Under the pieces are notes generated by a model. The model was not told the DNA's origin, searched no databases, and saw only the letters and a list, made by a program, of their open reading frames with translations. Shown in pieces: positions 3,175-59,470 of a stretch of 64,000 nt of DNA (position 1 is the first letter of the stretch; the number at the start of each line of letters is the position of its first letter). Origin of the DNA: Tubiluchus corallicola. Its lineage: Eukaryota; Animalia; Priapulida. The stretch lies in NCBI GenBank assembly GCA_030141605.1, contig JAQGDQ010001056.1:1-64000 (forward strand), read 5' to 3'. Both the position numbers and the translations under genes were made by a program.

Positions 3175-3590
3175 GTGGAGTCACACCTCCTCTGAAATGA
3201 CCCTCCTGATCACTTTGCTCCATGCTGCCCTGTCACCCGCAACCTCCCATGTCTCTGTATTTTTGATACCTAATGGTGTGTTTTGGAAAGATCTTTTCGG
3301 ATGAAATTGATATAAGTCAGCAGCTGTCCTCCTTGTAGTTTCTTTTCTTTCTGCAGCGCATCTTTGAAAGCTAATTTTAATGGACTGTCATCTGGTAGTC
3401 GAATAACATGTCCTGTCCATCTTAATCTTCTCTTTTTGATTTTAACTGTCAATTTCCTCTGCCTTGACTTTATTATACAGATCCTAGTTTGATATTTTCC
3501 TAAGCCATTTTATTCCAGTAGTTTCTTCTTTGAAATTCATCAATTTCTGATTCGTCTTGTGCTTTAACTGCCCATAATTCTGAGTGTCAT
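3175..3590 (-). mobile_element. Degraded RTE-clade LINE, 3' fragment
   Basis: ORF 3270-3452 reads KIKKRRLRWTGHVIRLPDDSPLK, the RLRWxGHVxR motif C-terminal to RTE reverse transcriptase; short (GAT)-type tail next to the 3' end. Confidence 0.85.
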
Positions 3591-4056
3591 CATTGACTAT
3601 CATAGTAAAACAGAAGAAGTATTGACGTCATAGAGTTGCATGGTGGCGACAGCTGTTGGAGAACTGTTAATATTTGAAAATCACAAAGTTAAAGCAAAAG
3701 GAAACATCATTCTTACATTGGTAAAATTGTAAGCTAATTACATTGGTAAGCTAAGAGAATTTGTCTTGAAAAATTTTTATCCATTACATATTGTATATAG
3801 AGCTTGCGTTAGCAATTTAAACTCTGATGATAACCATTAGACACATCTATTTTACCGGTAAGTCATTTGAAACTAGTTTAGATAACACTTTTTATATAGT
3901 CTGAAAAATAATCAAAGCATTCGTAACACACTCTAAGTTCACTAAGCAAAAATGTAAATTAATTTATCTTGTCAATAACATTAATAATATTTTTTGAACT
4001 GAACTGAATTGAAGATTTTATGCAGAACCAAAGTTCCATATTATGAAATGCATACA

Positions 4057-5226: not shown

Positions 5227-5383
5227 AAATATGATTACAGTCTTTTGTAAAACATGTTACTAGTTATTCGCCGTTTAAGAAACCGATTGTACAGTCTAGT
5301 GTTTGTTTCAGTTGCCCAGAGATGGCGCAACGAAGCCGTATACAAACACAACTATATCACTAGAAGCAATAGACTTTCTTTAA

Positions 5384-5984
5384 AGCAAAACCGCACCCAA
5401 TCTTAAACTGTAGGTCAAAACAATCTTTAAAATAATGAAAGGAAACACACTATTTTTTTTCAAAATGACTTGTGTGAAAGAATTATTACCACACAAACAC
5501 AATCACGTTTGCGCCATTAGCTCTTCGCTGTTACATGCATTTCGCCATTCTCTAGTTAGGCAGGCACTAGTGCCTGCATTTCGGAAACGCGATTTGCACA
5601 AAAACCAGGTTCTGTACCTCTCAGTTCAGAGGTCTTAACTACACACGTTCGACAGCTCATGCGTGAACACAGCGGTAAACTTGAAATTTGAATTTGTATC
5701 CTAAAACTTGCCTTGTTTTAGTACAATGCACTGAATATCTTACAGTAGTACTGTACTTCAATTTTCGCTTTCGCAAACACATGCAGCACGCTCATTGAAT
5801 GTTTTTGCTGTTGAAAATTATGTTAGTTTGTGATGTCGTCAATAGTTGGGCTCGCGCCGTTAATTAAGTTTTTAGTCTATTATTTAATTAACTGAAGCGC
5901 TTTTGCAGTATTAAATGCGTTAAAATGTGTACTTTTTATCGGACTTGAAAATGGGATAGTATATGAAAAACATCCTATCTTCCT
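5384..5984 (+). mobile_element. Family A ~600-bp non-autonomous DNA transposon (Kolobok-like), copy 1
   Basis: TTAA|AGCAAAACCG...CTATCTTCCT|TTAA: TTAA duplication and AG...CT termini; homologous to four other copies in the window. Strand is a relative orientation only. Confidence 0.85.
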
Positions 5985-6269
5985 TTAAGTGTTAATGGTT
6001 CGATATGTATAATATGTTTGTGCCTGTAAATTACCTTTATAGTTGGACTGTTGCAGCTTATAGACCTTAAATTTCGTACGATTTTTCATAGAAATGACTT
6101 GATTTTGGGGTAAATTGCCGCACAAACGACTGCAAAGGAGTTCAAACGTCATTTTGGTAAAAAATGATGTATTTCTTCAGAAGCATGCAAAATAGACAAA
6201 TAGTTTACACTGAGTACAGAAAGGCAACCTCAAATAGAGACATCACTTTTCATCATGGTTGCCACTTAC

Positions 6270-10602: not shown

Positions 10603-11163
10603 ATTGGGAAAATGCTTATTGAGCAAGCCAATGTAGCAAGTTTCATTTATTTGCTTACACAAAAAAACTCATCATACTTACATGTATATATGCAAAACAG
10701 AAGCTGAAAACAAGAGGAAAGATTTTGCTATAATTTTTACATTCAAACTTCGTAAGATTTAGCGATAATAGAGTGTCCTGTAATTATGTAATCTTTTAAT
10801 AATTATGACGTGCATTCGTGAATATACTTCGACACCTGGTTTCCATAAATAATGTACAAATACATGACCGTCGAGCTGTCACACTAATGATTGAGCACAC
10901 GTACTACTGAGGTGAGCATACCTCTTGGGAAATCAAGCTTAATAATGTATTACAAGTGGCTAATATCACTTCTCCTAGTGACACGTTAAAGATTAAGCGT
11001 GTTTTGAAGGTATGCTCCCAGTAGGATGTGTGTTTTTGGCAATGTGTCAGCGTCTTTCTCTCTTTCGTGAATTTGCTTGTAACTGAAAACTGAAACCCAT
11101 TAAGTGATTTTTTATGCGTACACCCACGAGAAAACGTCATGGATGAAATAACGACTCCTGGAT

Positions 11164-11765
11164 TTAAGGAAAAACCGGACCCAATCTTAAACTGTAGCTC
11201 AAAACAATCTACTCTTTAAAATATTAAAAGGAAATAAACTATTTTTTCAAAAATGATTTACGTGAAAGAATTATTACCACACAAACGCAATTTCACGTTC
11301 GCGCCACTAGTTCTTCGCTGTTACATGCATTTCGCCATTCGCTAGTTAGACAGGCACTAGCGCCTGCATTTCGGAGAGTGATGCACAAAAAACTGGTGCT
11401 GTACCTCTCAGTTAAGATGTATTAGTTTGTGAAGAACTACGCACGTTCGACAGCTCATGCGTGAGCACAGCGGTAAATTTGAAATTTGAATTTTTATCTT
11501 AAAGCTTGCCTAGTTTTAGTACAACACACTGAATATCTTACAGTAACACTGTACTTCAATTTTCGTTTTCTCAACCCGTTTACAACACGCTCATTGAATG
11601 TTTTTGCTATTAAAAATTATGTTAGTTTGTGACGACATCAATAGTTGGACTCGCCCGCCGTTAATTTAAATTTAATCAAATACTTAATTATCTGAAAGGC
11701 TTTTGCAGTATTAATTATGTTAAAATGTATACTTTTTTTTATCAGACATAAAAATGGGGTAGTAT
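11164..11765 (+). mobile_element. Family A Kolobok-like MITE, copy 2 (right terminus missing)
   Basis: Colinear with 5384-5984 up to AAAATGGGGTAGTAT, then breaks off. Confidence 0.85.
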
Positions 11766-12009
11766 TGGTAAAAGTATTATTACCGTAGAATCTTAATTAC
11801 CTCGCTATTGCATGCATTTGCATTACACGCTCTTACATGCTGTTACATTTACAGGTGACTAAACTTGAAGCTGATGAAGATAATTTATTAGAAGATCCAG
11901 CAAGTGAAGAAGAAGTGGATGTCTTAGAATTAAACAGTGAACATCGTTAGACCAATCAAGCATAAACAATATACTGCAATGGCCTAAAGCCTCTTTTTAT
12001 CCTTGGTGC

Positions 12010-13457
12010 CAAGGCTTGCAGTACGGTACAGTACGAAAAAAATAGCGTACCGTAATTCCGTACAGTACCTACAAAATCGAATCATACCGAACTAGTGCGT
12101 TAAAATACCCTACGTAATTTCGTACAGTACCTACAAAATCGAATCATACCGAACTAGTGCGATAAAATACCGTACCGTAATTCCGTACAGTACCTACAAA
12201 ATCGAATCATACCGAACTAGCACGATAAAATACCGTACCGTAATTCCGTACAGTACCTACAAAATCGAATCATACCGAACTAGTGCGATAAAATACCGTA
12301 CCGTAATTCCGTACAGTACCTACAAAATCGAATCATACCGAACTAGTACGATAAAATACCGTACCGTAATTCCGTACAGTACCTACAAAATCGAATCATA
12401 CCGAACTAGTACGATAAAATACCGTACCGTAATTCCGTACAGTACCTACAAAATCGAATCATACCGAACTAGTACGATAAAATACCGTACGTAATTCCGT
12501 ACAGTACCTACAAAATCAATCATACCGAACTAAAAATACCTACGTAATTCCGTACAGTACCTACAAAATCGAATCATACCGAACTAGTACGATAAAATAC
12601 CGTACCGTAATTCCGTACAGTACCTACAAAATCGAATCATACCGAACTAGTGCGATAAAATACCGTACCGTAATTCCGTACAGTACCTACAAAATCGAAT
12701 CATACCGAACTAGTACGATAAAATACCGTACCGTAATTCCGTACAGTACCTACAAAATCGAATCATACCGAACTAGTGCGATAAAATACCGTACCGTAAT
12801 TCCGTACAGTACTACAAAATCGAATCATACCGAACTAGTGCGATAAAATACCGTACCGTAATTCCGTACAGTACCTACAAAATCGAATCATACCGAACTA
12901 GTGCGATAAAATACCGTACCGTAATTCCGTACAGTACCTACAAAATCGAATCATACCGAACTAGTGCGATAAAATACCGTACCGTAATTCCGTACAGTAC
13001 CTACAAAATCGAATCATACCGAATAGTCGATAAAATACCGTACCGTAATTCCGTACAGTACCACAAAATCGAATCATACCGAACTAGTGCGATAAAATAC
13101 CGTACCGTAATTCCGTACAGTACCTACAAAATCGAATCATACCGAACTAGTGCGATAAAATACCGTACCGTAATTCCGTACAGTACCTACAAAATCGAAT
13201 CATACCGAACTAGTGCGATAAAATACCGTACCGTAATTCCGTACAGTACCTACAAAATCGAATCATACCGAACTAGTACGATAAAATACCGCACCGTAAT
13301 TCCGTACAGTACCTACAAAATCGAATCATACCGAACTAGTACGATAAAATACCCTACGTAATTTCGTACCGTACCTACAAAATCGAATCATACCGAACTA
13401 GTACCCTAAAATACCCTACGTAATTTTGTACCGTACTGTGCCGTACTGTCAGCCTTG
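12010..13457. mobile_element. hAT-like non-autonomous element filled with a 63-bp tandem array
   Basis: TIRs CAAGGCTTGCAGTACGGTACAGTACG / CGTACTGTGCCGTACTGTCAGCCTTG; 8-bp flanks CTTGGTGC (12002-12009) and CTCGGTGC (13458-13465). Confidence 0.9.
12048..13435. repeat. 63-bp tandem repeat, ~22 copies
   Basis: Unit TACCGTACCGTAATTCCGTACAGTACCTACAAAATCGAATCATACCGAACTAGTGCGATAAAA, head-to-tail with no spacers. Confidence 0.98.
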
Positions 13458-13574
13458 CTCGGTGCCCTCATATATCTATGCCAACTTGCCGCAAAACTTA
13501 GTTTTGTACTAATAGAAATACCTCAATTACCAGTTGGTCATTCTGTCCAGTTAGTAACACATATTAAGCAAGAC

Positions 13575-15773: not shown

Positions 15774-15952
15774 TTCCCCTTCATCATCTCATACAGTTTA
15801 AATATAGCCGCCATTTGAGTTTGGGTGTGTACACGTACGAGGAACGAACGACAGGGTCAAAGAAAGGAAAGGATATTTGGGCGCGTACAACGAGGAAAAA
15901 TGGAGGGGTGGATACAAAAAATAATGTTGCACAGACAATCGAGCTGCTTTAA

Positions 15953-16587
15953 AGGAAGACAGAACGATTTTTCATGTACTACCTCATTTTCAAGTCCGTT
16001 AAAAAGCATACATTGTAATACAATTAATATTGCAAAAGCCTTTCTGGTAATTAAATTATAGATTAAAAACTTAATTAACGGCGGGCGAGCCCAACTGTTG
16101 ATGACATCACAAATTAACATAATTTTCAACAGCAAAAATATTTCACGAGCGTGTTACACGTGCTGTGTGTGTGTAAGATATCAGTACAGTGCTGTGTGTA
16201 AGATATCAGTGTGTTGTACTAAGACTAGGCAAGTTTTAAGATAAAAATTCAAATTTCAAATTTACCGCTGTGCTTACGCATGAGTTGACGAACGTGTGTA
16301 AAATATAAACTATATTTATTTATATATATGACGTTCGTTATAAACTAACACGTCTGAACTGAGAGGTACAGCACCTGTTTTTCGTGCAGTGCGTTTCCGA
16401 AATGCAGGCGCTAGTGCCTGTCTAACTAGCGAATGGCGAAATGCATCTATCAGCGAATGCGAAATTGTGTTTGTGTGGCAATAATTCTTTCACGTAAGTC
16501 ATTTTTGAAAAAATAGTATGTTTCCTTTCAATGTTTTAAAGAGTAGATTGTTTTGACCTGCAGTTTAAGATAGGGACCGGTTTTGCT
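15953..16587 (-). mobile_element. Family A Kolobok-like MITE, copy 3
   Basis: TTAA|AGGAAGACAG...CCGGTTTTGCT|TTAA. Confidence 0.88.
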
Positions 16588-16789
16588 TTAAATGCTGTGT
16601 TTTGTACTGCCTTTCATTACCAAACATTCACGTGATACGCAATATAAGAAAAGTAAATTAAGCAAATCCAGCCAACGGCTACGTTATATAGTCTACCTAA
16701 ACAATTACTAATTTTGCCACGCCAATCTTCTCTTGTCCACTAATAGAAACAGGTGGATAACTGAATGCCTTTGCGTTGCATATATGTGG

Positions 16790-17600: not shown

Positions 17601-17742
17601 CGTGATTGGTTCACTACAAAACATATTACACTTTATTACTCTTTACTGAAAAGGTAAAGTAATTCATATTTTTGTTTATTTAGTAGAGTGTGTGCTACGA
17701 ATCCTTAGATTATTTTTCCGAACTTCACGTAATGTCATTTAA

Positions 17743-18181
17743 AGGAAGACAGGATGATTTTTCATTTACTCTGCCCCATTTTCAAGTCTGTTAAAAACTA
17801 TACATTTTACCACAATGAATGCTGCAACCAGCGAATGGCGAAACGCATGTAACAGTGAAGAACTGTGATGTACCGTTGTGCTCACGCATGAGCTGTCGAA
17901 CGTGAGCAGTTCGTCACAAGCTAGCACATCTGAACTGAAAGGTACAGCACTTGTTTTTGTGCAATGCGTTTCTGAAATGCAGGCGCTAGTGCCTGTCTAA
18001 CTATTGAATGGTGAAATGCATGTAACAGCGAGGAACTAGGGGCGTGAACATGAAATTGTGTTCGTGTGGTAATAATTCTTTCACGTAAGTCATTTTTGAA
18101 AAAAAAATAGTATGTTTGCTTTCAATATTTTAAAGAGTAGATTGTTTTGAACTACAGTTTAAAATTGGGTCCGGTTTTACT
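17743..18181 (-). mobile_element. Family A Kolobok-like MITE, copy 4 (internally deleted)
   Basis: TTAA|AGGAAGACAGG...CCGGTTTTACT|TTAA; ~160 bp shorter than the other copies. Confidence 0.88.
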
Positions 18182-18284
18182 TTAATTTCTTATTCAACGA
18201 CTGGCCGTTAATATGGCTGCGCGCGGAGTATGATAATTGTCATCGCGGGAGAAAACTTTTACTTACGTAAAACTAGAAAATTCG

Positions 18285-18840: not shown

Positions 18841-20151
18841 GTGGGAATTGGGAGAGAGTCATCTTAAACAAACTTATGATTCCTTTAAAGTTCTAGAACT
18901 GATGTAAAACGCTCGGAAGAGAATGGCTCCAATTTTCCGTGTAACGTTCAAAATAGCTGCATTCATAAGTGTTAACACGCTTTACATAAATCTTTGTATA
19001 TAATAATCCGAAATGGCATAAATAAGCGGCTATGTTCACAGTTTGAGGATCAAAGCAGACAATCGTTGTACCACAGATACCACAAGCGCTAAATGGCCGT
19101 CAAGAATGCCAAAACTATGCATATGTGCACCCAAACACCAAACAAACAAACAGAAGACAACTGACGTGTCTTTGAGTGCCAGTAATGCAGTAAAAAGCTT
19201 ACGAAACGCATAAATGAAACCCAAGAAAGTTGGTTTTGTTACTTGCAGGGATAACGATATACTTCTTCAGTTCACAATTTTCTTCATTTGCCAGGAAGCA
19301 CCATCATAGTGAACAGGAGCCTGAAACTAACCTCACAATATCTATTCCCTCTAGTCAAATTCATGTATATTTTTTTCATGACGCCATCACGTTGTGCATG
19401 AATATTCAGATGCAACTGATTGAACACTGAATCGTTAGATGGAGAGCCAAAAAGGAGACGCTTATAAAAAATGACAGGATCTTTTCAACTGGTGAAATTT
19501 TGCAAACAGCTTTGTTAAGCCATGTCAAAGTCTGGCAAAGACGCATGTCAGCACCACAAAGACAAGCAATACGCTTTCCACTCGCTATGTTTGTCGTGTT
19601 TTTGTCATCTTCGCAAAATGTAAATGGAAAATATTTCTGTCGAAGAAAGCTACAATTGTCCATCGTTCAAACAAAATGTCAGCTATATGAAAACGCATCT
19701 GCATGGCTTCCGTCTATACGAGAGAGCAAAATATTGTGATGCCTATATACCCTCGGGAATGTAGCGAAATAAAATTTCCTGGGCTGGCTGAAAAATATTT
19801 TTGCTTTATTTACCATTGTTCGACGACGATGGAATATGGACAGGTATTGTGAAATTTAATTAAGATAAGCACTAGACCCTGTAACGTTTATTTTTGAAGT
19901 AAATTACGTAGAATGCGTTGATAATAGAAATGTTTCTTCAATAACGACACACGCCAAGCTTCGTGCAAATTTACACTGCCCAAAACTACAAAAAGTTTAA
20001 CAATAGACTATATAATAGCCGATCAGATAAAATAAAGTAAAATGTTTTTGTGGCGAAACTGTGTTTTCTAATCAAACAAGGAATATTTTTTCTCTGTTTT
20101 TATAACTGATCTACTATTATAAAGCAATAAAATATGAAATGTTTAACATAC

Positions 20152-20897
20152 CTCTCCACTTTGTGCAAAGCAGGGTTACGTTTACTTATGACTCCAGCGA
20201 GAGGTGCAGCAACTAAATCACATAATCCAACACTACCACTACCAGAGGGCGCGCTAGGAGGCGTAGTAGTCGACGACGTAGTTTGTACAGGAACTGGATC
20301 AAACTTATCCAACAGTTCATCAGTTAGATCCACACTGTTTTCATTAACAACTGGTTTCCTGTGCTGCCCTTTTGCGTTTACCTTGCTCGTTGCACTCTCA
20401 CTCATTTTAGAAACCTGATCGGTCTCGTCACCGTCAACTTTCTTCACTTTACCAACCAATAATTGACTTTTTTCACCATCATTTTTGTATTCTTGTGCTA
20501 GACTTTTAGTTTGTACTTGTGCAGATTCAATATTGGATGAGGTTACGTTTGATTCTTTTCCACTCATATCTGTGCGAACACTGCTATCTGATTCATTTGT
20601 TGTTTCAGCACTAGTACTGGTAATGGCTGTTGATTCTACAGCAGGATTGTGCATTGTTCCTTTAGTATCTTTACCCTCATTGTCTTTCATTTCTAGGTCA
20701 TTCTCGCCACCCGCTTCCACTCCAAAGAACTTTGAGACTTTGTTAGAAGGTTTCCCCGTAGTTGATTTGAACAGCTGCTCATCATGTTTTTTATTGATTG
20801 AATCGTTTTCTGCCCAAGTGCTCTCACTGGGAGATTCGTAATTGATAATTGCATTTCTACTGCCAACCTGGGTACAAGAGAAATCACTTTCAGACAT
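20152..20897 (-). CDS. Probable first coding exon (248 codons + 2 nt) of an unidentified protein with an S/T/E/K-rich disordered N-terminus
   Basis: Longest non-repetitive ORF in the window; in-frame TGA just upstream of the ATG; strong donor GAG|GTATGT at 20152/20151, where coding-like composition ends. Confidence 0.75.
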
Positions 20898-22114
20898 ATT
20901 CTTGTGTCATTTGACGATGGCACTAATAGAATTATGACATGTGCACCTGCTACTCCGACTCAACTGCACTTTTACACGGTCATAGTCACCGCTTGGTTAT
21001 GATCGTCTTAGTGTTAAACTTTCACTTCCCATCTAATAGCTTAGTTTATTACTCCTATAGAACAAAACTTGTCTCGTTAGCGTTTGATTAATGGTGATTC
21101 TACCTACATTTTCTTTAATCGCTATAAATAATGAATAAGAGCGGCACACTTAGCGATGATGTATCAACGCATAACCTGATTACCATCAGGTTAAGTGGTA
21201 ATTTCGCAAAGAAAGTAGTGCTATCGTCTCACGCAACGCGAGAAGGGAGGTATTAGGAAAAGAAGAAAGCCTTTCCTTGCGATAATCAACTAAAGCGGAA
21301 AAATAGAGAAACTTCCAGTAGAGGAACTCGAAAAACGACTAACAAACCTGTACCAAACAAACACATTAGTTTTTAATATAAATAACTTAGACTCTCAGTT
21401 AAAAAATTCAGTTTCTGGTAGTTTTCTACTAAGTTATGGACAGAACATCATCGTATTTCACCTGGTACAGCAATACGTTGATTTATCTAACCGTTTTAAT
21501 TATTTTAATTAACAATTGGAATACTACTTATGTATATTTTGCGACAGACTTGTTTTTCCTGCCAAACTGCATTCCTGAAAATCTTGCAGCCTGAGACAAT
21601 CCGTTCAGCATCTATTTGTTGTTTGCCAAAGGCAACTATTTCAAATAAATGTTTAAAAAAGCAGAAAAAACAAAAGACCGACAAAGAAGCAATAAGCCAT
21701 TAGTCTCAGTCAACAAAGACTCGGGTAAAAGCACAAACAGCGATTAACAGAGAATAATTCACAGAACTCAACAATCTAAATCACAAAACTCGTGAAAATT
21801 GTGAAAATATCCTATTAAAAGTTTTGGTGTAATAAAATCAGTGTTAAATCAATATTATCTTGCATGGACGAAAAGGTATTACTGTATGTTATAGAAAGTA
21901 TGACACTATGACCAATAACTATTAGCTGCTAGCATATAATTTTCACGAATTGCAACGCTGCAGCCCAGTGCTCTTTAATTTGACCTGTTGTGATGTGACC
22001 TATTATTAAAGCGTTGATGAATAAAATCATTTTCAGAAATAAGCCAGTTAATTCTTATAGCATCTGCCATTATTTTTGTTCAGTTGAACGTACACTACAT
22101 TGTTATGTCTAGAG

Positions 22115-25070: not shown

Positions 25071-25372
25071 ACCAAAATTGTATTTCTTATTGCTATCTTC
25101 AATTCTTTATCTATGTTTCGTTATCTACCTGTTGTAAGTTGACAGATCGCGACTAAAAAGAATTTTAGAAATCTTCATACATCCAGGGGACAAATTTTGT
25201 TCACCTCTGTTCTACTGGTTGTTGAATAGCTATTTCTTCACTGGACAACCATCAGCTAGTCTGTACCCAATCTATCTTAAACGACGCGTTTTATTTTCCT
25301 TGCCCATTTTAGAAGAATAACTCGATACTCGTTACCATGGAATTAGTCTGCGTCATGACTGAAGTGCGTCAG

Positions 25373-25570
25373 GACACATTGCGTCATTCATATGACGATA
25401 ACAATTCGTTGCCATGGCAAAGATTGTTCTTCGTTCTTGACACATTACGTCATTCATATGACGATAACAATTCGTTACCATAGCAACGATTGTTCTTCGT
25501 TCTTGACACATTACGTCATTCATATGACGATAACAATTCGTTGCCATGGCAACGATTGTTCTTCGATCTT
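25373..25570. repeat. 66-bp tandem repeat, 3 copies
   Basis: GACACATTACGTCATTCATATGACGATAACAATTCGTTGCCATGGCAACGATTGTTCTTCGTTCTT x3, with internal palindrome TCGTTGCCATGGCAACGA. Confidence 0.95.
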
Positions 25571-25659
25571 GCAACTGACCTAATAGATGTCAGTCTTTGT
25601 TCGGCCTCATTTCTTTCTTTGCTTTCGATGCGAGAAAGGCGTTATTATTTGCAAGTCTC

Positions 25660-26050
25660 TAGTGCATTCTTTAGTGGACTATCATGGGCTGTTTTGATTT
25701 TTTATGCAACCGCGAGCGCCGTGAGGACAGTGAGGACCAACCGGTGCCTAGATGCTGGAGGATCCGGACCATATGGTCTAGGGCCCGGGGGCAAGTCGCT
25801 CCTATGCCCTCAGTCCATTCGTCTTCTGGGACCTCCACGCGTTGTAGTGGTGAGGTAGAGTCATCCGGGACAACCGTGGGGGTGGTTCGTCTTGGAAGCT
25901 CGAGTAGCATGGGTTTCCCTCTGGTTGAGTGCTGAATGTCATTCTTAAGTACCAACCTTACAGTACCATGCTCTCACATCTGGGTTCTGGTCAGGACAGC
26001 CACTTTTGGACTGTCAGAGCCCCGTAAGGTGCCTCGGGGGAGGGGGGGCC
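25660..26050 (-). mobile_element. Probable RTE-clade LINE 5' region (distal 5' UTR and ORF start), truncated
   Basis: GC-rich island; minus translation ...PEDEWTEGIGATCPRAL...RLHKKSKQPMIV resembles the leader just before the AP-endonuclease xxTxNVRTL motif of invertebrate RTEs; the motif itself is decayed. Recognised by eye, not by alignment. Confidence 0.55.
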
Positions 26051-26051
26051 T

Positions 26052-26230
26052 GGCTCGCGGTAGTGCGTGCACTACAGGGGTGTGTGATGCGTTAGGCGTA
26101 ATTGCCTACTAAAGCTAAGTGTAGACGAACAGTTGGCACACAGCCTCTCCACACCCAAGACTCCTGCGTAACCTCCACGAGGTGCGAGCTGGTAACTGCC
26201 CCATTACAGGAGCAGGCTAATCAGCAGGGG
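26052..26230 (+). ncRNA. HDV-like (nested double pseudoknot) self-cleaving ribozyme
   Basis: P1 GGCTCGC(26052-58)/GCGAGCT(26184-90) with G1-U wobble; P3 ACC/GGT; L3 TCCACGA; P1.1 CC/GG(26191-92); P4 CTGCCCC..GGAGCAG; J4/2 GCTAA with C26217; P2 CTCCTGC(26161-67)/GCAGGGG(26224-30). Confidence 0.85.
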
Positions 26231-27039
26231 ATCTCGGAGCAGTATGGAGCCCCAGAGGTGCAGTGCTGAAAGGCACTCACCATTCCATACCCCAACTATG
26301 GGTTAAATAGCATAATATATTTCAGAGCAGATCTACGTATACTAAAAACAGAAGTTTTTTTGTATTTTCTCTCATTATAATGGAAATTAAGTTTAATAAA
26401 AAGTTAACAGGTTAACTGTATTGTTTACTGTTTTTTATTGTTTGATTTTTCTATGTATAGTAGATTAAATGCTTTTAATTGTCTCCAATATTTATGCAGA
26501 AAATTGACTTTAAATGAAATTTGTCTTGTCTTACTTTATTTTATCTTACGTCTTCTCCTTTCCTCTCCTCTCTCCTCCCCTCTCGTCTCCTCTCTTTCCT
26601 CTCCCCATTCTCTTTATTATTGTATTTTTTGTTTTTGTGCAAGTTTGTGTGATTTGTTTGTATTGATTTTTCTTTTTATATAATGTTGAATGTTGTAAAT
26701 ACGTCAATTATAATATGAGCTTCAGTTTGAAATAAAGGATTAAATCAAATCAAATCCTCTCTCGTTTCGCCTCTTTCGTCTAGCACATCTAATTCTTCTG
26801 GTCTTACGTTAATTTTAATGCTAATGAACATGGAAAATGATTTACTTCATAAAATTTCCGTACGAGGCAGTGGTGGATAAGGCACAGGCTTTATTAGTTG
26901 CGACCAGGAGCCTCCACCAGCTGAGGGACCTCCAGGGATTACGTAAATTACCGTGAAATTACTACAGAATGAGAACAGAATTATACTGAATTGTCTCTTT
27001 GAAAACGGCTCAATTAATTAATATGCCGTAGAATAATAC

Positions 27040-27153
<114 letters not shown>

Positions 27154-28940: not shown

Positions 28941-30470
28941 TCCCATATATGAGCTTCATTCATACATCATTCCATTTTAAGCACTAATGTTTTTTTATCA
29001 CGATTCAGTTTAAATTTTCAGATTATCTCCATTACTTTTTTTTCTATCACTGTGTGGGACAATCTAACAAGCCCTGCTTTTTGATTGCCCGCAAGACAAT
29101 TACCTTCGTGTATAAGTGAACGGTGTGTGAGGCTTTTCCTGTGCAGTATTTCTTATTTGTATTATATCCATTGTAGGCCCTTTCACTAGATATCGTAAAT
29201 GTAACCATTGTAAATGTGTAAGGTGAAACAAATGACTTATAACTTACGTCATCAAAACACACTGCCAGTTTATGTACTTCAATGTCTTGCCTTTCACTTA
29301 AGTTATTCGTTGCTGACTACTCATACCCTCTAGTTACTTCACCGAACACCTATACATTTTAAAATCGAAAGAGAACGGCTGGGTTTTTACTGGAAATGTA
29401 CATCATTTAGTACTACTGAGATTTTTCTAATTTTACAACGTGCAGTCTTCCGTAACATCGAGAAATCCTCCTTATCCCAACGAAGGATAACAGGATTGAT
29501 TCAGCGAGAATTTTTGACTTAAATTTCTTTGTTATGTTATACTCGTACAGCTTTTAAAGGAAGACATGATGATTTTTCATATACTATCTCAATCCGATAA
29601 AAAACATACATTTTAACACAACTAACACTGCAAAAGCGTTTCTGATAATTAAATAATAGGTTAAAAACTTAATTAACGGCGGGCGAGCCCAACTATTAAT
29701 GACATCACAAACTAACATAATTTTCAACAGCAAAAATATTCCACGCGTTGCACGTGTTTGCGAAAGCGAAAATTGAAGTACAGTGCTACTGTAAGATATT
29801 CAATGTGTTGTAATGAAACTAGACAAGTTTTAAGATAAAAAATTAAACCTTCAAATTTACGGCTGTGCTCACGCATGAGCTGTCAAACGTGCGTCGTTCG
29901 TTACAAGCTAACATAATTGAACTGAGGGGTACAGCACCTATTTTTTGTGCATGCGTTTCCCAAATGCAGGCGTTAGTGCCCGTCTAACTAGCGAATGGCG
30001 AAATGCATCTATCGGCGAATGCGAAATTGTGTTTATGTGATAATAATTCTTTCACGTAAGTCGATTTTGAAAAAATAGTATGTTTCCTTTCAATATTTTA
30101 AAGAGTAGAATGTTTTGACTTACAGTTTAAAATTGGTTCCGAATTTGTTATTAATTTTTCTTCTTCCCATATATGAGCTTCATTCATTACATCATTCCAT
30201 TTTAAGCACTAATGTTTTTTATCACGATTCACTTTAAATTTTCAGATTATTTCCATTACTTTATTTCCTATCACTGTGTGGGACAATCTAACAAGCCCTG
30301 CTTTTTGATTGCTCGCAACACATTTACCTACGTATATAAGTGAACAGTGTTTGAAGCTTTTCCTGTGCAGTTTTTCTTATTTGTAATATGTTCATTGTAG
30401 GCCCTTTCACTAGATATTGTATATGAAACTATTGTAAATGGGTAATGTTAAATAAATGACTTATGACTTC
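28941..30470. repeat. ~300-bp direct duplication (28941-29247 and 30164-30470)
   Basis: TCCCATATATGAGCTTCATTCAT...TATCACTGTGTGGGACAATCTAACAAGCCCTGC...AAATGACTTAT occurs twice. Confidence 0.92.
29558..30150 (-). mobile_element. Family A Kolobok-like MITE, copy 5
   Basis: TTAA|AGGAAGACATG..., colinear with copy 3; decayed far end followed by TTAA at 30151. Confidence 0.85.
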
Positions 30471-30884
30471 TTTGAAAGAGTGCTGAAAAGCACCAAAATT
30501 TATCCCCATGCAGCAGGTAGCTTAGAGCAAATGTAAGTAAAATAAATGATGCTTCGGCAAATTGTTCTGATACGCTCGAGGTGAATGTTTTATCTGTAGC
30601 AACTAAAGTCAGTTTCAACTCTTTTAAGCAATAGTGTTAATCTTTTCTCTCTTTTATTCTTTCTGTCTTGTTGTCTTTGCAGTGCCTAAAGATTCGATAC
30701 TGTTTCAGTTAATATACGTAAATCAGAATCAGGTGGCGCATAGAATTAACCTAAAGACTGCCAATCAAAGCGAATTCAAATCTTTGTTATCAAAGATTTC
30801 TCCTCTTTCTCTTCTTCCTTTTAACTTTGAACGAAATTGGTTCGTATGCAGTATGCTGATGATGTGGCATAGATTGAAAGGAAC

Positions 30885-31733
<849 letters not shown>

Positions 31734-32728
31734 GAAATTGGTGCCGTCACGGAAGTGGTGCTGATAAGCTATTGGCATAGCAGTGTCTGGTTTTTTGCTG
31801 GATTGCTGCCGTGTTTGCCTGTCTTGAAGACTTGTTTGTTTTATTTTGAAATTTCCGTCTTTCCAGTGTCTACAATATGATATGATGATGAATAAAATAG
31901 GCCTAACCTGTCGGAACATATCTAAAAATCTTCGAACTTACGTACAAACATTTTAATTAGCGAATCCCATTAACCTTCATTTCCAAATCAATGACATTTA
32001 TGCAGGTTTACAGCCGAATGGAACAGACCGAAAGAAACATTAAAAGGATGACTGTAATAATTCAACTCTGTAACGACCGTTCATATTATTATTTTAAAAA
32101 TCACGCCATTAAAATATGCATGAATTATAGCCAACTTTGCGCTTGTAACAGTTATTTTCACAGAGCAGCAACATTCTAAACCGTTACACAGGTTACCACT
32201 GGACATTTAGAGAGCGTACTGAATGAAGCCAGTTTAATTAAATATCGAACGGCTTCTCCGCGGGCAGACCTCAGCGGTTGCTAATCCCATGGAAATATGT
32301 TCCCCGAGCATAGGCAACAGACCGAAGTTTATAAACTCGCCAAAAATCACGTTTTCACTTTATTTTCTGCTTTGCACTGACAGTGTCCTATTGCGAGGTG
32401 AGTTTTGCATTTAGATTAGATGACACGGTACAGTGACAAGTTGTGCAATCAAAGACCAACTCAATCATCTAAGTACATGTAATGTAAAGGAAAACGGAAA
32501 CTGCATCTGATTCTTCCTTTAAAATCATAGGCGTACATGGCGGGGGTCGGAGGGGCGGCGATTGCCCTCCCAGAGCAAATGAATTTTACATTTTCAGGGC
32601 AAATAAATTTCCGAATTTAATTTTGAATATTAAAAATCGCTGAAAATGCACGAGAATAAAATTTGTCGGCTCACGGGCTTTAAAGAATGCAATACTAAAC
32701 TCACAATTTCATTTTTCTAAAATCATAA

Positions 32729-34150
32729 TCCTGACTGGGCCCATGTTCACACTGTGTTCTAAGTAAGCGCATGTTCACACTGTGTCCTAAGTAAGCCCAT
32801 GTTCACACTGTGTAATGACTAGGCCCATGTTCATACTGAGTCCTGACTGAGCCCATGTTCACATTGCATCTGTTCACATTGAGTCCTGACTAAGCCCATG
32901 TTCACACTGAGTCCTGACTAAACCCATGTTCACACTGAGTCCTGACTGGACCTATGTTCACACTGAGCCCATGTTCACACTGAGTCTTGACTGAGCCGAT
33001 GTTCACTCTGAGTCCTGACTGAGCCTATGTTCACCCTGAGTCCTGACTAAGCCTATGTTCACACTGAGTCCTGACTGAGCCTATGTTCATACTGAGTCCT
33101 GACTGAGCCTATGTTCACACTGAGTCCTGACTGAGCCTATGTTCATACTGAGTCCTGACTGTGCGTATGTTCATACTGAGTCCTGACTGAGCCCAAATTC
33201 ACACTGAGTCCTGACTGAGCCTATGTTCACACTGAGTCCTGACTGAGCCTATGTTCATACTGAGTCCTGACTGTGCCTATGTTCATACTGAGTCCTGACT
33301 GAGCCCAAATTCACACTGAGTCCTGACTGAGCCTATGTTCACACTGAGTCCTGACTGAGCCTATGTTCACACTGAGTCCTGACTGAGCCGATGTTCACAC
33401 TGAGTCCTGACTGAGCCTATGTTCACACTGAGTCCTGACTGAGCCCATGTTCACACCGAGTCTTGACTGAGCCCAAGTTCACACTGAGTCCTGACTGGAC
33501 CTATGTTCACACTGAGTCCTGACTAAGCCCATGTTCAAACTGAGTCCTGACTAAGCCCATGTTCACAGTGAGTCCTGCCTGAGCCTATGTTCACACTGAG
33601 TCCTGACTGAGCCCAAGTTCACACTGAGTCTTGACTGAGCCCAAGTTCACACTGAATCCTGACTGAGCCCAAGTTCACACTGAGTCCTGACTGAGCCCAA
33701 GTTCACACTGAATCCTGACTGGACCTATGTTCACACTGAGTCCTGACTGAGCCCAAGTTTACACTGAGTCCTGACTAAGCCCATGTTCACAGTGAGTCCT
33801 GCCTGAGCCTATGTTCACACTGAATCCTGACTGAGCCCAAGTTCACACTGAATCCTGACTGAGCCCATGTTCACACTGAATCCTGACTGAGCCTATGTTC
33901 ACACTGAATCCTGACTGAGCCCAAGTTCACACTGAATCCTGACTGAGCCCAAGTTCACACTGAATCCTGACTGAGCCCAAGTTCACACTGAATCCTGACT
34001 GAGCCTATGTTCACACTGAATCCTGACTGAGCCCAAGTTCACACTGAATCGTGACTGAGCCCAAGTTCACACTGAATCGTGACTGAGCCCAAGTTCACAC
34101 TGAGTCCTGACTGAGCCTATGTTCACACTGAATCCTGACTGAGCCTATGT
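32729..34150. repeat. 28-bp minisatellite, ~50 copies
   Basis: Unit ACTGAGTCCTGACTGAGCC(C/T)A(T/A)GTTCAC. Confidence 0.98.
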
Positions 34151-37100
34151 TTGATTCTGTGCAAGGTAACCTCTGTGTAAATTATTATTACGCAAAGCTT
34201 TTAGACAGGATAAACCTGATTGGGCAAAGTGCTCATTTACAAAAATGTCTTGTGTTAAAAGGCAGCTCACAACAATAATCATAAATAAGATTTAAACTTA
34301 TGGAACAAAATTATTAGACGAGGTTGCAGAACTTCCTAGCTTGAATACTATAGATTGATGAATTTACAGTTAACACATACACAGGCAGCTTAAATCCTTA
34401 AATTGCATTATTTAGCTACTCTTCAAGGTTTAAAAGAAAAATTAATCTTGAACGTATTTTTGACTTGACTTTTAAAAGCTTTCGTATTTGAATAATGACG
34501 TATATGAACAGGTAGTTGATTCTAAATTACTGTCCACGTGTAGCGGAAGCATGGCCGGCTAATGTTAGTTCTAAGTAACAACGACTTGCAATCGCCTCAT
34601 TGTTTTGATCTCGTGTTATAGTCACGATCTATGGGAAAAATATCAACATATCATTGAGTACGATGTTCATTGAAAATAATTTTATGCATTCATATAGAAA
34701 AGTGACTTTTACGTCTAATAGTTAAAGACGGCCAAATTAAGGTCCTTAACATATTGGACTGCCGTCCGTTCATAACGGAGGCAGGACGGATGACACCGCG
34801 GCCTAAATTATGCTGCATGTTTTTAATTAAGCTAATCAAACGCTCCAGCTAAAAAAAATTCGAATCATGGAGTTGAATTGACTATTTATTATCAAGTACA
34901 ACTACACTTTCAGTTTAACCCAAATGTCGACTTTAGAAGAAAGAACTCAACCGGCCGGTTTGTGGCAAAGCCTGTGAACAGAGCTGGAGGACTAAATGAC
35001 TTCGACCACTGACAAGGATCTACCTTCCCATTTTATAAGCTCAAGTGTGCACGTGACAGGTAGCCTTTACTAACACAAGGTCAGAATACGAGTCTGTACT
35101 AGATAAAGCCACGTTCACATGCGCACCTGAGAGGTACACTGCATTCCTTGCCAGCATTAAATTTGCATTTCTTTATTAATAATTTAATTTTAACATGAGC
35201 CTACTCTAGCGCTGAGTACAATAGCAACAACAACAACGTCACGTACTTCAAGGTTAAGCAGAATTCTAATAGCTACGTTCTGACATATTTGCAATCTTCC
35301 CAAATGCTAGATTAAATCGAGGCTGAGTACATTAGAATGTCTAGCTAACTGTGCCATCTTATAAATGAAATCAATTTCTAGTGCTCTGAGGACGGACGAT
35401 CACTGCTTTACTCTTACGGTCAATGGAAACACGCATTTACAAAAATCATTAGCAATCCTAGTTCGTTGTCACTTCAACTAGCAAAATAACGAACCGATCT
35501 TGTTAGAGGAAATTGGTTGAAATTGTCGAAACCTTTCTAAAGGGTAATATAATACGCGTAACAATTGCAAAGAGACATCTAGCTTTTATTGCTATGGTTT
35601 TATCTCCAAATGCAGGTTTACACCATTACGTTCTGCACACTATTGTATATTGTACATTTTCTATGGCATGTTAACTCAATGAAATAGTCATAAATTCTCT
35701 CGCCAAGCAACCTTACAAAAGCAAATCATTCACCCAGAGACGACAATTTATCAAAACTGTTTTTAACTAACAACGGGTTCGTTTCGCAAAACTCAAGAAA
35801 GACTGATTCGTTAAAGGAAAAGTCAATCTTTCTGGGAAGTTATGCTTAGTTCAATGTTCGTGAAAGACATTAGGATTTAGTAATAATAAGCGGTAATAAG
35901 TGTAATTGGTAAAGCGACTTTAAAGCCGCGATCATTTCATTCCCACTTTGAATGCCCATTCTTACACCAATGGCGCGTTAGCACAAACATTAGGCAAGCT
36001 GCAGAGGTTTGAATTAATTTAAGCAGTGCCCGCTTACCAAAAGCACAGTTACCGTCTTGTGAAAAATCACGAAGTATATCAAAAAATTTCAAGTAAATGG
36101 CGACTATTGCTGGGATTGAAAATTTCTTGGCAATTTTTTTGCAAATTCTTTGTTGATGACAGGAAATTAAACCTAAGATTCTGAATGACTTATCTTTTCC
36201 TTTAAGATTAATTGCCCTTTGTAACAAGTCTAGTTATCTCACATAGATGCAGTTTGTTAATCAAAGTTACGGAGCAGGTTGTGGCCTAACAAGGAGTTGC
36301 ATGGAAGCAGTTTTATTATCTCACAAACGACCTTGTTCTTTTAATGGCTTTGACAATTAACTGTACTCAAAGACAATTCAATTGCTTGAATAGGGTTTGA
36401 TATTTTTTCTTGACTCACTATATAGACGTTTTGGCTTTCAGTTTATTACTTAAGCAGGGAAATTTTGAGAAATTTCTGTACTAAATTGGGCAGGCTCCTA
36501 ATAGCACATGTAACTGCTTATTAAGCCCTCAGTCTGTATATCATTTATTATTTGAATGTACATTAGTAAACCAAGCCAAAAGAAATGATTTATTAGCACT
36601 CTACCTGCGTTAGATTCAGACTATGTTTTCTCTAGCCCGGATAATAATGCTACAAATGCTTCTGCAAATCTTATCTCGGAAGAATTCCCATCGTCTTTCG
36701 CCCGTATATAAACAGTCTGTTGGTGATGAAATTGTACTACTCTCGTCGTGTTTTCTATATGATGTTTTGCTTTTATTTATGATTATGTGTAACTTACTTT
36801 AGAATTGGTAATTATGTTTATTATAATTGTACTCGCTGTTTTTCATTGTGTATAATGTGTGTAAATTTTTGTTACTAAGTATTAAAATATGTTCGTTATC
36901 GTTTATTATGTATGTAGGTACTGTTGAATTATAATTTGTAACTATGTCTATTGTATATGATCATTGTCGTTCAATGTGTCTCATGCGTTAGATTCTAAAT
37001 TATATATACATGTGAATAGGTTTAATATGTTGTAAATGCTTTTAGAAATTTTAAACGTATCCCTAAAAATAGAGGGAATGTATTCTGTACATAGTTTTTA

Positions 37101-39759: not shown

Positions 39760-40530
39760 ACATTCTTTTCTTCAAAGACTCGTTCCGTCTGTGTTGTAGG
39801 CATTGAGGCATTGACATTTATTAGAGTATTCCACCCACTCTTATCCGCAGCTAACAGCGTAAGTTCTTCTGCTTCTAAAGATAGATTTGGTTGAAGTTGT
39901 TGAACATCTTTATTAATCTTACCTATATAAGTTGTTGTAGGTTTGCCAGGTGGTTTTTTTTGCAAGGTTTTAAGGCTTCCTTTAAAGCTGTTTTACTGGT
40001 ACTTCACTTGGTAATCTTAGAAGATGTCCTAGCCATTTTAATCTTCGGATCTTGACTTTTGAACTCCAATAAACTTCTTTCGTTTTGGTGTATAAATCTT
40101 CATTTTTGATTACGTATAGCCATCTTATCCTTAAAATTTTTCTTAGAAGACTTCTATGAAATGTGTTAATCTGTTTTTCTTAAGTAAGCGTTAAACCCTA
40201 AGTTTCACTGCTGTACATAAATATGCTGGCAACGTAAACATTAAATAATCGAAGTCTCACGTTATGACTTGCTAGTTAATACATTCTTATGCTGAAGAAA
40301 AGCATGCATTGCTTGTTGCTTTCTACTTTTAATATCATCTTCGGTGCTTAGGTTTCCACGTTGTTTTAGGTTTCCCAGGTGGTTTTTCGTAAGATTTTAA
40401 GGCTTCGTTTAAAGCGACTCTTACTGGTGTTTCATTTTGTAATCTTAGAAGATGTCCTAGCCACGTTAATATTCCGAGCTTGACTTTTGAAGGCCAAGGG
40501 ATTTCTTTCGTTCTAGTGTATAAATCAACG
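39760..40530 (-). mobile_element. Degraded RTE-clade LINE fragments (two adjacent pieces)
   Basis: KVKIRRLKWLGHLLRLPSEVPVK-type coding remnant, very similar to 56045-56665; 40355-40527 repeats part of it. Confidence 0.88.
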
Positions 40531-40865
40531 AATGTTGTTACACGAAATTCAACATAAGAAATAAACAGAAACGAGCTCTTTTAAACCATTACAATTACGT
40601 AACGTATGTGAAGAGATAACAATGAACAAACTACTGAAGCTTTACGGTGTAGATTTGCTGTCCGTAAAGTAAAAATCACCCATCAATAAACCACTCAGTA
40701 GAAGAATGAGTTCTAATCCCTCTGAGAAATTGACTCTCACTATTTTTGAGCCGTTTTGAGCTGCTCCACTTTAATTCCCAACTAGTGAAACCTTAATTAT
40801 TAAAGAGTCAGCTTTTAAATCTTTCATTGTCTATCCGAAAATTCGTAGTCTGGCAGTATAGCATC

Positions 40866-56044: not shown

Positions 56045-56665
56045 TTTTTCTCCTTCAAAGTCTCATTCCATCTAATGTAGGCATTGGGATATCAACATTT
56101 ATCAGAGTATTCCACCCCTTTTATCTGCAGCTAACAGCATAAGTTCTTCTACTCGTAAAAATAGATTTGGTTGAAGTTGTTGAACATCTTTGAGGCTGTT
56201 TTACTGGTACTTCACTTGGTAATCTTAGAAGATGTCCTAGCCATTTTAATCTTCGGATCTTGACTTTTGAACTCCAATAAATTTCTTTCGTTTGGGTGTA
56301 TAAATCTTCATTTTTGATTATGTATGGCCATCTCATCTTTAAAATTTTCCTAAGAATACTTCTATGAAATGTGTTATTCTGCTTTTCTTGAGTAATCGTT
56401 AAACCCCAAGTTTCACAGTTGTGCATAAATATGCTGGTAACATAAGCATTAACTAATCGAAGTCTTCTGCTAAGACTTAATTTCTTTTTTTTAAATACAT
56501 TCTTGCATTAAATAAAATCATGCATTGCTTGTTGCTTTCTACTTTTGATATCATCTTCGGTGCTTAGCAAAGTGCCCATGTACTTGCACTTTTTCCAAGA
56601 CTGATTACCATAAGCCTTGCAATAATATGTTTTTCTGTTTTTGACTGGTTTACTTGAAGATTATT
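56045..56665 (-). mobile_element. Degraded RTE-clade LINE 3' fragment
   Basis: ORF 56121-56426: NCETWGLT...TFHRSILRKILKMRWP...KIRRLKWLGHLLRLP, a typical RTE post-RT region. Confidence 0.92.
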
Positions 56666-58325: not shown

Positions 58326-58787
58326 TTGCTTAAAGTTGCTTCAGTAACTGGAACTATATAACCAAAATTCCACACACGATTAGTGGTAGGCTCTTTTCAG
58401 CAGTTTCGACACCCTGCAAAAACTGCACAGGCTTCTGATTTCAGCATTTACACTTTGTGCACATGCTTCTGCGAGGTCGACCGTAACTGTTCTCTTGTTA
58501 GTGTTTACTTTACAGCTAAGCAGGAATATCTGTTCGCTAATTTCATGATTTAGAGAAAGTGGTGTCATCTACAGTCTGATATTAAAATATTTATTTTCGT
58601 TTTTTTGATTGCGTGTTATCTTTCTAATTCGTCTATTTATAGGAGTTAGAAATTTCATGATTAAATGGATCCTTGAAGAACTACGTGTTTGGAAAGCAGA
58701 AGTGGCCAGTGTCTGCTACATAAATTACTACCAGACTTCAACTTCACGGTAGGAAGCATCTTATTTTCACAATAAGCGACTTTTGTG

Positions 58788-59114
58788 ATGTGGATTAAGC
58801 GCATTTCTGCATTGTTAGTGTTGACGATTGGCTTCTGCCAAAGTCAGTGCCCAGCACGATGCAGCTGTGGTCAAAGAGACCCCATTGTTGTAGAATGCAG
58901 GCAAGCTGGACTAAGACAAATGCCATCTACTAGTGAGCTTCCGCCACTGACGTCAACGTTGGTGCTGATTGCAAATGAGATACCCGTGATTCAAAGTGAC
59001 GCTCTAAGAGGCATGAGTCACCTGAAGAAGGTGAAGATATTTAATAGTGGTGTGACGACCATAGAACCCTATGCTTTTAGGGGCTTGGGCAGACTAAGTG
59101 AACTACAAATGCAG
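58788..59114 (+). CDS. Extracellular LRR protein, coding exon 1: signal peptide, LRRNT and first LRRs
   Basis: MWIKRISALLVLTIGFCQS signal; CPARCSC...VVECRQAGLRQMP LRRNT cap; LxLxxNxIxxIxxxAL/F repeats; donor CAG|GTATGA; likely acceptor TTTATAG at 58642, implying a spliced 5' UTR. Confidence 0.93.
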
Positions 59115-59470
59115 GTATGAAAAGTCCGACTGGTATGTTGCCTTTTAATACTGTCAATGTCACGGATGAGCTTGTTCAATTACTATTTAGCAATTAATTA
59201 ATTAATCTTACTTAATTAATGCTCAGTTGGCTAAAATCGTTGTTTAAATGGTTGTGTGCACGTCAATTTCCAGGTTGACGATTTTAAACGAACTTTTGAT
59301 TCGTTTATAAGACCAAAAAGCTATAACACTTCTGGCAGAAGATTCTTAATGAAAAGAAGACCATATGGAAATCATTTTTTTGTAAATGACTAAACGTAAT
59401 GAATAGAACGGTCAAAATATTAGTTAGAAAATGCTGACGATGCTAAATGTAGTTGTTGTTCATTTCGAAG

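Follow-up and report, generated by a model that had tools for sequence, protein, structure and literature searches.

Does an HDV-like ribozyme that is complete in its layout also mark the 5' end of a mobile element? This question is raised by a locus in a 64,000-nucleotide stretch of DNA from the priapulid Tubiluchus corallicola (contig JAQGDQ010001056.1, positions 1 to 64,000; this whole stretch is called the window in the following). HDV-like ribozymes cut 5' of their first residue, G1, with the aid of a J4/2 cytosine and Mg2+, and they release the RNAs of non-LTR retrotransposons from co-transcripts (PMC6765202, PMC3774820). The explanation that we favour, with a probability of roughly 0.55, is that a retrotransposon-type HDV-like ribozyme heads a non-LTR element that is non-coding, either internally deleted or a relic, and embedded in a composite repeat.

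The fold of the ribozyme

The locus has a complete HDV-type double-pseudoknot layout at 26052-26234, and this fold is real. All five helices (P1, P1.1, P2, P3 and P4) occur in the right order and at the coordinates given in the preliminary description of this DNA. The parts are the following:

26052-26234, plus strand: HDV-like ribozyme, with the predicted cleavage between U26051 and G26052
26052-26058, plus strand: 5' strand of P1, partner 26184-26190
26059-26157, plus strand: J1/2 insert, with a hairpin at 26060-26075 and an arm at 26078-26156 that encloses the hairpins 26093-26108 and 26114-26137
26158-26170, plus strand: 5' strand of P2, with three outer pairs, seven pairs, the 2x2 mismatch at 26168-69, and A26170-U26221
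26171-26192, plus strand: core of P3, L3, P3', P1' and the GG of P1.1, the sole such core in the window
26196-26215, plus strand: P4 hairpin
26216-26220, plus strand: J4/2 GCUAA with the candidate catalytic C26217
26221-26234, plus strand: 3' strand of P2, A26231 bulged

P1 comprises seven base pairs (26052-58/26184-90), namely a G-U wobble at G1 followed by six Watson-Crick pairs. The three pairs of P3 (26171-73/26181-83) close the seven-nucleotide L3 UCCACGA (26174-80), the GG of P1.1 (26191-92) comes directly after P1', and J4/2 (26216-20) has its candidate catalytic cytosine where the preliminary description had placed it. P4 is short, with 26196-99/26212-15 plus two pairs and a predicted energy of -8.3 kcal/mol. 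The consensus features are present as well (wobble at G1, P1 of 6-7 bp, U..CC..G in L3, a J4/2 with C and RA). P2 has the seven pairs 26161-67/26224-30, one of which is G-U, and at its inner end the two mismatches G26168/A26223 and U26169/C26222, which are followed by A26170-U26221 in the Rfam alignment. Beyond the one-base bulge A26231, P2 can be extended outward by three pairs (26158-60/26232-34), and the motif therefore reaches 26234, not 26230 as initially delimited. J1/2 (102 nt when counted up to the seven-pair part of P2) folds locally: the helices already named were recovered with pair probabilities of 0.72-1.0 when J1/2 was folded alone, and the hairpin 26114-26137 comes in addition. 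With one hairpin and a branched arm that has two inner hairpins, few linker bases stay unpaired.

That such an arrangement arose by chance within a GC-rich repeat is extremely improbable. An HDV descriptor search returned one locus in 64 kb, both strands included, and none in 60 shuffled windows; on dinucleotide shuffles of the GC-rich island 25700-26330 it gave 0/4000, and when the core was kept fixed and the flanks were shuffled, 9 out of 20000 sequences had P1 plus a loose J4/2-P2 and one had the strict form. The active-site letters, moreover, agree with known ribozymes. What speaks for chance is the Rfam score below the cut-off, and also the fact that the descriptor, once a core is given, can fire in DNA of 74% GC. 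Scans with the 22-letter core pattern yielded two loci in metagenome contigs, three in prokaryote genomes and none in viral contigs, and the descriptor fired in two of these five bacterial loci (L002 and L003, with identical translations), all of which had been preselected by their core, so that it must be considered unspecific in very GC-rich DNA. The five loci, which lie in bacterial DNA of 72-77% GC with open frames through the match, were dropped as chance occurrences and not kept as relatives; the two that were compared with the window (L001 and L002) have no similarity to it.

The best Rfam match is drz-agam-1 (RF01787), which aligns over the whole model with 22.5 bits and an E-value of 0.064 and thus stays under the gathering threshold of 37 bits; no Rfam match reaches gathering level anywhere in the window, and among the matches up to E 10 within 25600-26500 there is no hammerhead. 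The core ACCUCCnCGnGGU and the J4/2 letters CUAA agree with the drz-agam-1 consensus and also with the R2 catalytic-region primers given in PMC3414825. Structure, chance controls and the sub-threshold match thus back the assignment as an HDV-like ribozyme with a structured J1/2, for which cleavage is predicted.

A second copy of ACCTCCACG, as it is present in P3/L3, lies at 25831-25839 within a long hairpin of the upstream leader, without a fitting P3' or J4/2. A second ribozyme around this repeat at 25831 was considered and rejected, as neither the descriptor nor Rfam gave a match.

Surroundings and relatives of the ribozyme

Whether G26052 is the 5' end of an element depends on what precedes and follows it, and these neighbouring features are:

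25642-26051, no strand assigned: multi-copy non-coding leader, preceded by a short TTA run whose length varies; GC-rich from about 25700
25709-25720, plus strand: part of the leader with complementarity to 26047-26061, on either side of the cut
25945-26031, no strand assigned: short module, head to tail in other contigs, with joints from 26028/26031 back to 25978-25991
26027-26051, plus strand: predicted hairpin that adjoins the cut on its 5' side, -13.2 kcal/mol
26235-26330, plus strand: GC-rich post-ribozyme segment to which divergent relatives align up to 26247-26261; no long ORF
26331-26756, plus strand: T-rich segment that ends in AATAAA (26731-36) and (AAATC)3 (26742-56)
27040-27152, no strand assigned: (ATT)37 microsatellite, where the repeated unit may alternatively end on the right

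Relatives are contigs of four runs (at most two samples) aligned on 25100-27040; the contig data considered here comprise the 40 of 166 variant rows and the 32 of 1227 pieces listed, and contig depths serve as hints only and give no copy number. A search for sequencing runs that contain the sequence listed no RNA run, a result that bears in no way on expression. The 410 bases upstream of G26052 are themselves multi-copy. One X2 contig spans 25978-26275, the linker position 26041-42 is covered by 10-11 X1 contigs, and the leader repeat begins sharply, with several contigs starting at 25642-25648 beside the variable TTA run. The module 25945-26031 is structured, occurs in units of 75-90 nt, has the deepest coverage of the stretch and contains a loop complementary to 25950-25961; it has no Rfam match. 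The upstream sequence is shared in the near-identical contigs, whereas the divergent records are unaligned upstream, with alignments that stop inside J1/2 and not at G1 and with long unaligned parts to either side among the pieces listed. No target-site duplication was found between four left and eight right ends: the longest word shared in these 32 end pairs has 7 nt, and no shared word is flush with both ends. Of the initial proposal of a retroelement 5'-processing ribozyme, the ancestry is plausible, whereas the shared upstream sequence, the lack of a target-site duplication and the lack of a coding remnant count against a 5' end of the element at this locus. As a side observation, 25688-25708 and 26309-26331 form an imperfect inverted match flanking the GC-rich island (-17.3 kcal/mol), and 25770-25790 has what we take to be a faint likeness to a tRNA A box.

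Two near-identical records cover the ribozyme, X1 record 4 (26061-26182, one difference, at 26119) and X2 record 13 (25978-26275, five differences and five gaps), the latter of which possibly represents the same locus and not a paralogue. Divergent relatives with 83-89% identity were found in one sample:

26080-26247: X1 record 5, 18 other letters
26140-26261: X1 record 6, equal to X3 record 22, 20 other letters
26068-26187: X3 record 21, 18 other letters

The latter two types belong to longer records (312-2381 nt) that are unaligned elsewhere among the pieces listed, in agreement with a ribozyme head that is mobile and sits in differing contexts. As to single positions, G26119>C restores a J1/2 pair and is present in all contigs listed there (X1, X2, X3), T26116>C in other contigs converts a J1/2 U-G into C-G, and among the variants listed G26127>A falls into a loop and the changes at 26202/26203 into the tip of P4. 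A26131>T would break a J1/2 pair and G26224>A (three X1, one X2 and two X3 contigs) a P2 pair, unless the respective partner co-varies. Changes in P1', P3, L3, P1.1 or J4/2 are absent from the 40 of 166 variant rows listed, which is compatible with a conservation of the core and is not equal to a covariation test. The mismatches in inner P2 had been suspected to reduce activity in this copy; they are indeed present, but they are not private to the window, because X1 record 4 carries them as well.

Downstream, the T-rich segment 26331-26756 is what we take to be a candidate LINE-like 3' end. Its tail with AATAAA and (AAATC)3 (26731-56) is deeply covered by contigs whose upstream ends differ from one another, and contigs have loose ends at 26724. 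In other copies, the joints 26326>26551 (X1, X3) and 26323>26614 (X2) connect the sequence that follows the ribozyme with the T-rich 3' segment, and together with the deeply covered tail this points to a build like that of the ribozyme-headed, internally deleted R2 SIDEs (PMC3414825). In X2 record 15, the (AAATC)3 end is no boundary, since this record crosses it and continues to 26872.

The region offers no coding partner for the ribozyme: no similarity to reverse transcriptase (RT) or endonuclease lies between 26230 and 30837 (4.6 kb downstream), none of the 109 frame fragments of 19000-31560 matches Pfam at the curated cut-off (only a weak DUF6451 occurs, at 31109-31198), and phmmer with the longest frame across the core, 26102-26266, returned no protein. 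The match to six RT proteins that is nearest to the ribozyme, 30837-31512, was considered as the 3' end of the same element and rejected, because the intervening 4.6 kb are devoid of RT and endonuclease similarity; members of other repeat families lie within this distance. The window as a whole contains the following repeats:

3282-3628 (minus), 30837-31512 (plus), 39807-40544 (minus), 56070-56633 (minus): four decayed, RT-bearing, 5'-truncated LINE fragments, identified by tblastn with the six RT proteins
5379-5988, 11162-11773, 15948-16593, 29553-30157 and, in part, 17736-18188: members of an interspersed repeat family of about 600 bp, in both orientations and 77-83% identical

By their motifs, the LINE fragments are presumably RTE-type; downstream of the one at 30837-31512 comes a (GAT)n run (approximately 31570-31730). 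Most 2-kb segments of the AT-rich window have 32-40% GC; microsatellites and interspersed repeats are abundant and long frames few, and the ribozyme lies inside a GC island (25701-26300, 49-64% GC) flanked by DNA of 23-43% GC. ARAGORN detected no tRNA in the 64 kb, and thus this program gives no tRNA-headed SINE. We infer that the window is animal non-coding DNA that carries decayed LINE fragments.

Elsewhere in the window, a 268-codon open frame at 20103-20906 (minus strand) is rich in S/T/E/K, has no Pfam match and may be the start of a LINE ORF1 or a host exon. A frame at 58776-59117 (plus strand), about 32 kb from the ribozyme, presumably encodes a signal peptide, a cysteine cap and leucine-rich repeats, and we regard it as a probable first exon of a host gene. 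Positions 1-453 and 578-1029 form an inverted duplication (99% identical, spacer 124 nt) that is either a young foldback or an assembly artefact, and minisatellites with periods of 63, 28 and 66 nt are located at 12007-13488, 32701-34151 and 25373-25571, respectively.

Competing explanations

If the ribozyme heads an internally deleted or relic non-LTR element, the J1/2 helices would hold P1 and the extended P2 together upon transcription, and C26217 would, with Mg2+, catalyse the predicted cleavage of a read-through RNA at 26051/26052, leaving an RNA with a 5'-OH that begins at G26052. The released RNA would consist of the ribozyme, the short GC-rich segment and the T-rich tail to about 26756, and it would represent either a short element with an internal deletion or what remains of such an element, copied by an autonomous LINE elsewhere. 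The ribozyme would descend from a non-LTR 5' end and would have spread by copying in trans or by a later passive duplication with the upstream repeat; at this locus, it is fused to that repeat and was probably duplicated together with it. It is also conceivable, albeit rather unlikely, that only the descent is HDV-like and that the subfamily no longer cleaves and spreads by passive duplication alone. Cleavage would then be lost because the 2x2 loop adjoins P3 and because upstream sequence traps P1 or P2. This agrees with the mismatch in inner P2, with the missing coding partner and with two predicted competing duplexes: the G-rich strand of the linker 26027-26051 can alternatively pair with P2/P3 (-24.0 kcal/mol), and the leader segment 25709-25720, which has nine perfect pairs with 26053-26061, can sequester P1 by pairing across the cut site (-23.2 kcal/mol). 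For a transcript 25700-26195, the predicted probability of P1 is 0.01, as compared with 0.88-1.0 for later starts, and upstream pairing is described as a strong inhibitor of the HDV ribozyme (PMC4615214). Against a loss of cleavage stand the intact P1, P3, L3, P1.1 and J4/2, the ability of the linker to form its own hairpin, and the inner-P2 mismatches in about a third of R2 ribozymes; moreover, the native fold is underrated in such calculations, because the folding model cannot hold pseudoknots. The upstream sequence may modulate the ribozyme.

The same leader pairing bears on a further possibility, which we consider unlikely: a larger mobile unit, with its left end at 25642 and its right end either at 26395 (754 nt) or at the (ATT)n run (roughly 1.4 kb), could contain the ribozyme in its interior. 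A multimeric RNA of tandem copies would be cut into monomers and circularised by a host ligase, in a retrozyme-like manner with an HDV core replacing the hammerhead. In one X1 contig, 26395 is indeed followed by TTA and then by 25642, the sharp left ends beside the TTA run would fit, and so would the pairing across the cut site and the folding of 25700-26330 (z = -2.5). However, the joint, which a nested insertion could also explain, occurs in one contig of one of the four runs, the window holds no second copy, the minus strand folds almost equally (z = -2.2), and the animal retrozymes described in PMC7229834 have 170-400 nt and type I hammerheads. The leader pairing is a lead only, because it is near-equal to P1 in energy (-209.0 vs -207.9, better by about 1 kcal/mol) and because 4 of 300 shuffled leaders pair equally well with 26052-26063, in a test that was chosen after the match had been seen. 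Still more doubtful is the specific version in which the 754-nt non-coding unit 25642-26395 is an HDV-core retrozyme, arranged head to tail, with multimers that are cut to monomers and a leader that acts as splint: 25709-25720 would pair over the cut site and hold the ends for ligation, and this pairing would turn the ribozyme off in the circle, like the rod of hepatitis delta virus. Literature searches listed no HDV-core retrozyme by title, and the relevant parts of the retrozyme and Penelope papers describe hammerhead versions only (PMC7229834, PMC7761336, PMC8557442, bioRxiv 10.64898/2026.07.22.740005). If this is true, the genome would encode a circular RNA element that has a delta-virus ribozyme and a built-in splint, and such an element would link retrotransposon ribozymes to delta-like circles, a link that reviews, in the parts concerned, propose and do not document (PMC7761336). 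A domesticated, CPEB3-like host-regulatory ribozyme in an intron or a long non-coding RNA, finally, is very unlikely. In its favour, neither element ends nor an ORF were found, and there is the presumed host exon at 58776-59117; the ribozyme is, however, multi-copy with divergent relatives and lies in repeat-rich DNA with no sign of an enclosing gene.

Relation to known ribozymes and elements

What do known systems contribute to the interpretation as a ribozyme-headed, internally deleted or relic element? The Anopheles ribozymes drz-Agam-1 and drz-Agam-2 (RF01787, PMC4908430) have the same P3/L3 core and J4/2 letters, and Agam-2 shares the large structured J1/2 and the extended P2; its fast cleavage has been attributed to the structured J1/2, short linkers and a long P2 (Webb et al., PMC4908430). 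The window ribozyme differs from both in the sequence of J1/2 and P4, in the 2x2 loop of inner P2 and in the lack of a linked ORF. Drosophila R2 ribozymes likewise have the HDV fold, a variable J1/2, UAA in J4/2 and tolerated P2 mismatches (PMC3774820, PMC3414825), and the R2 and R2-R1 SIDEs are similar non-coding elements that combine a ribozyme with a 3' end (PMC3414825). In contrast to these, the window ribozyme lies outside rDNA (no Rfam rRNA match), has no target-site duplication and is preceded by another repeat.

The dispersed, multi-copy HDV-like ribozymes of RTE, baggins and L1Tc/NARTc have been proposed to release their element from a transcript of the host, and their downstream sequence is conserved while the upstream sequence differs (PMC6765202). 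Here, the upstream sequence is common to at least some copies, and the similarity of the divergent copies stops about 30 nt past the ribozyme. With the animal non-LTR retrozymes, the locus has in common that it is a non-coding, structured, ribozyme-bearing repeat, and that a head-to-tail joint occurs, here a single one; retrozymes, however, have type I hammerheads, tandem units of 170-400 nt and demonstrated circular RNAs (PMC7229834; bioRxiv 10.64898/2026.07.22.740005), whereas the window has an HDV core in single copy. The alternative pairings of the linker, either in a duplex with P2/P3 or in its own hairpin, resemble Alt1 and P(-1) of HDV (PMC4615214). A parallel exists in the twister variants that head Perere-3, where duplications lie beside the cut site (PMC8501958); such duplications are absent at the window ribozyme. 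HDV ribozymes in Hydra/Naiad Penelope-like elements were dropped as a further comparison: the text of PMC8557442 contains neither 'HDV' nor 'hepatitis' and reports Hydra hammerheads.

The HDV-like ribozyme type is well known, and this locus is a further example of it. It adds a natural HDV-like ribozyme whose J1/2 is large and branched and which has a natural 2x2 loop beside the active site; it could be used to test whether peripheral domains, as the rule has it, pinch P1 and P2 together.
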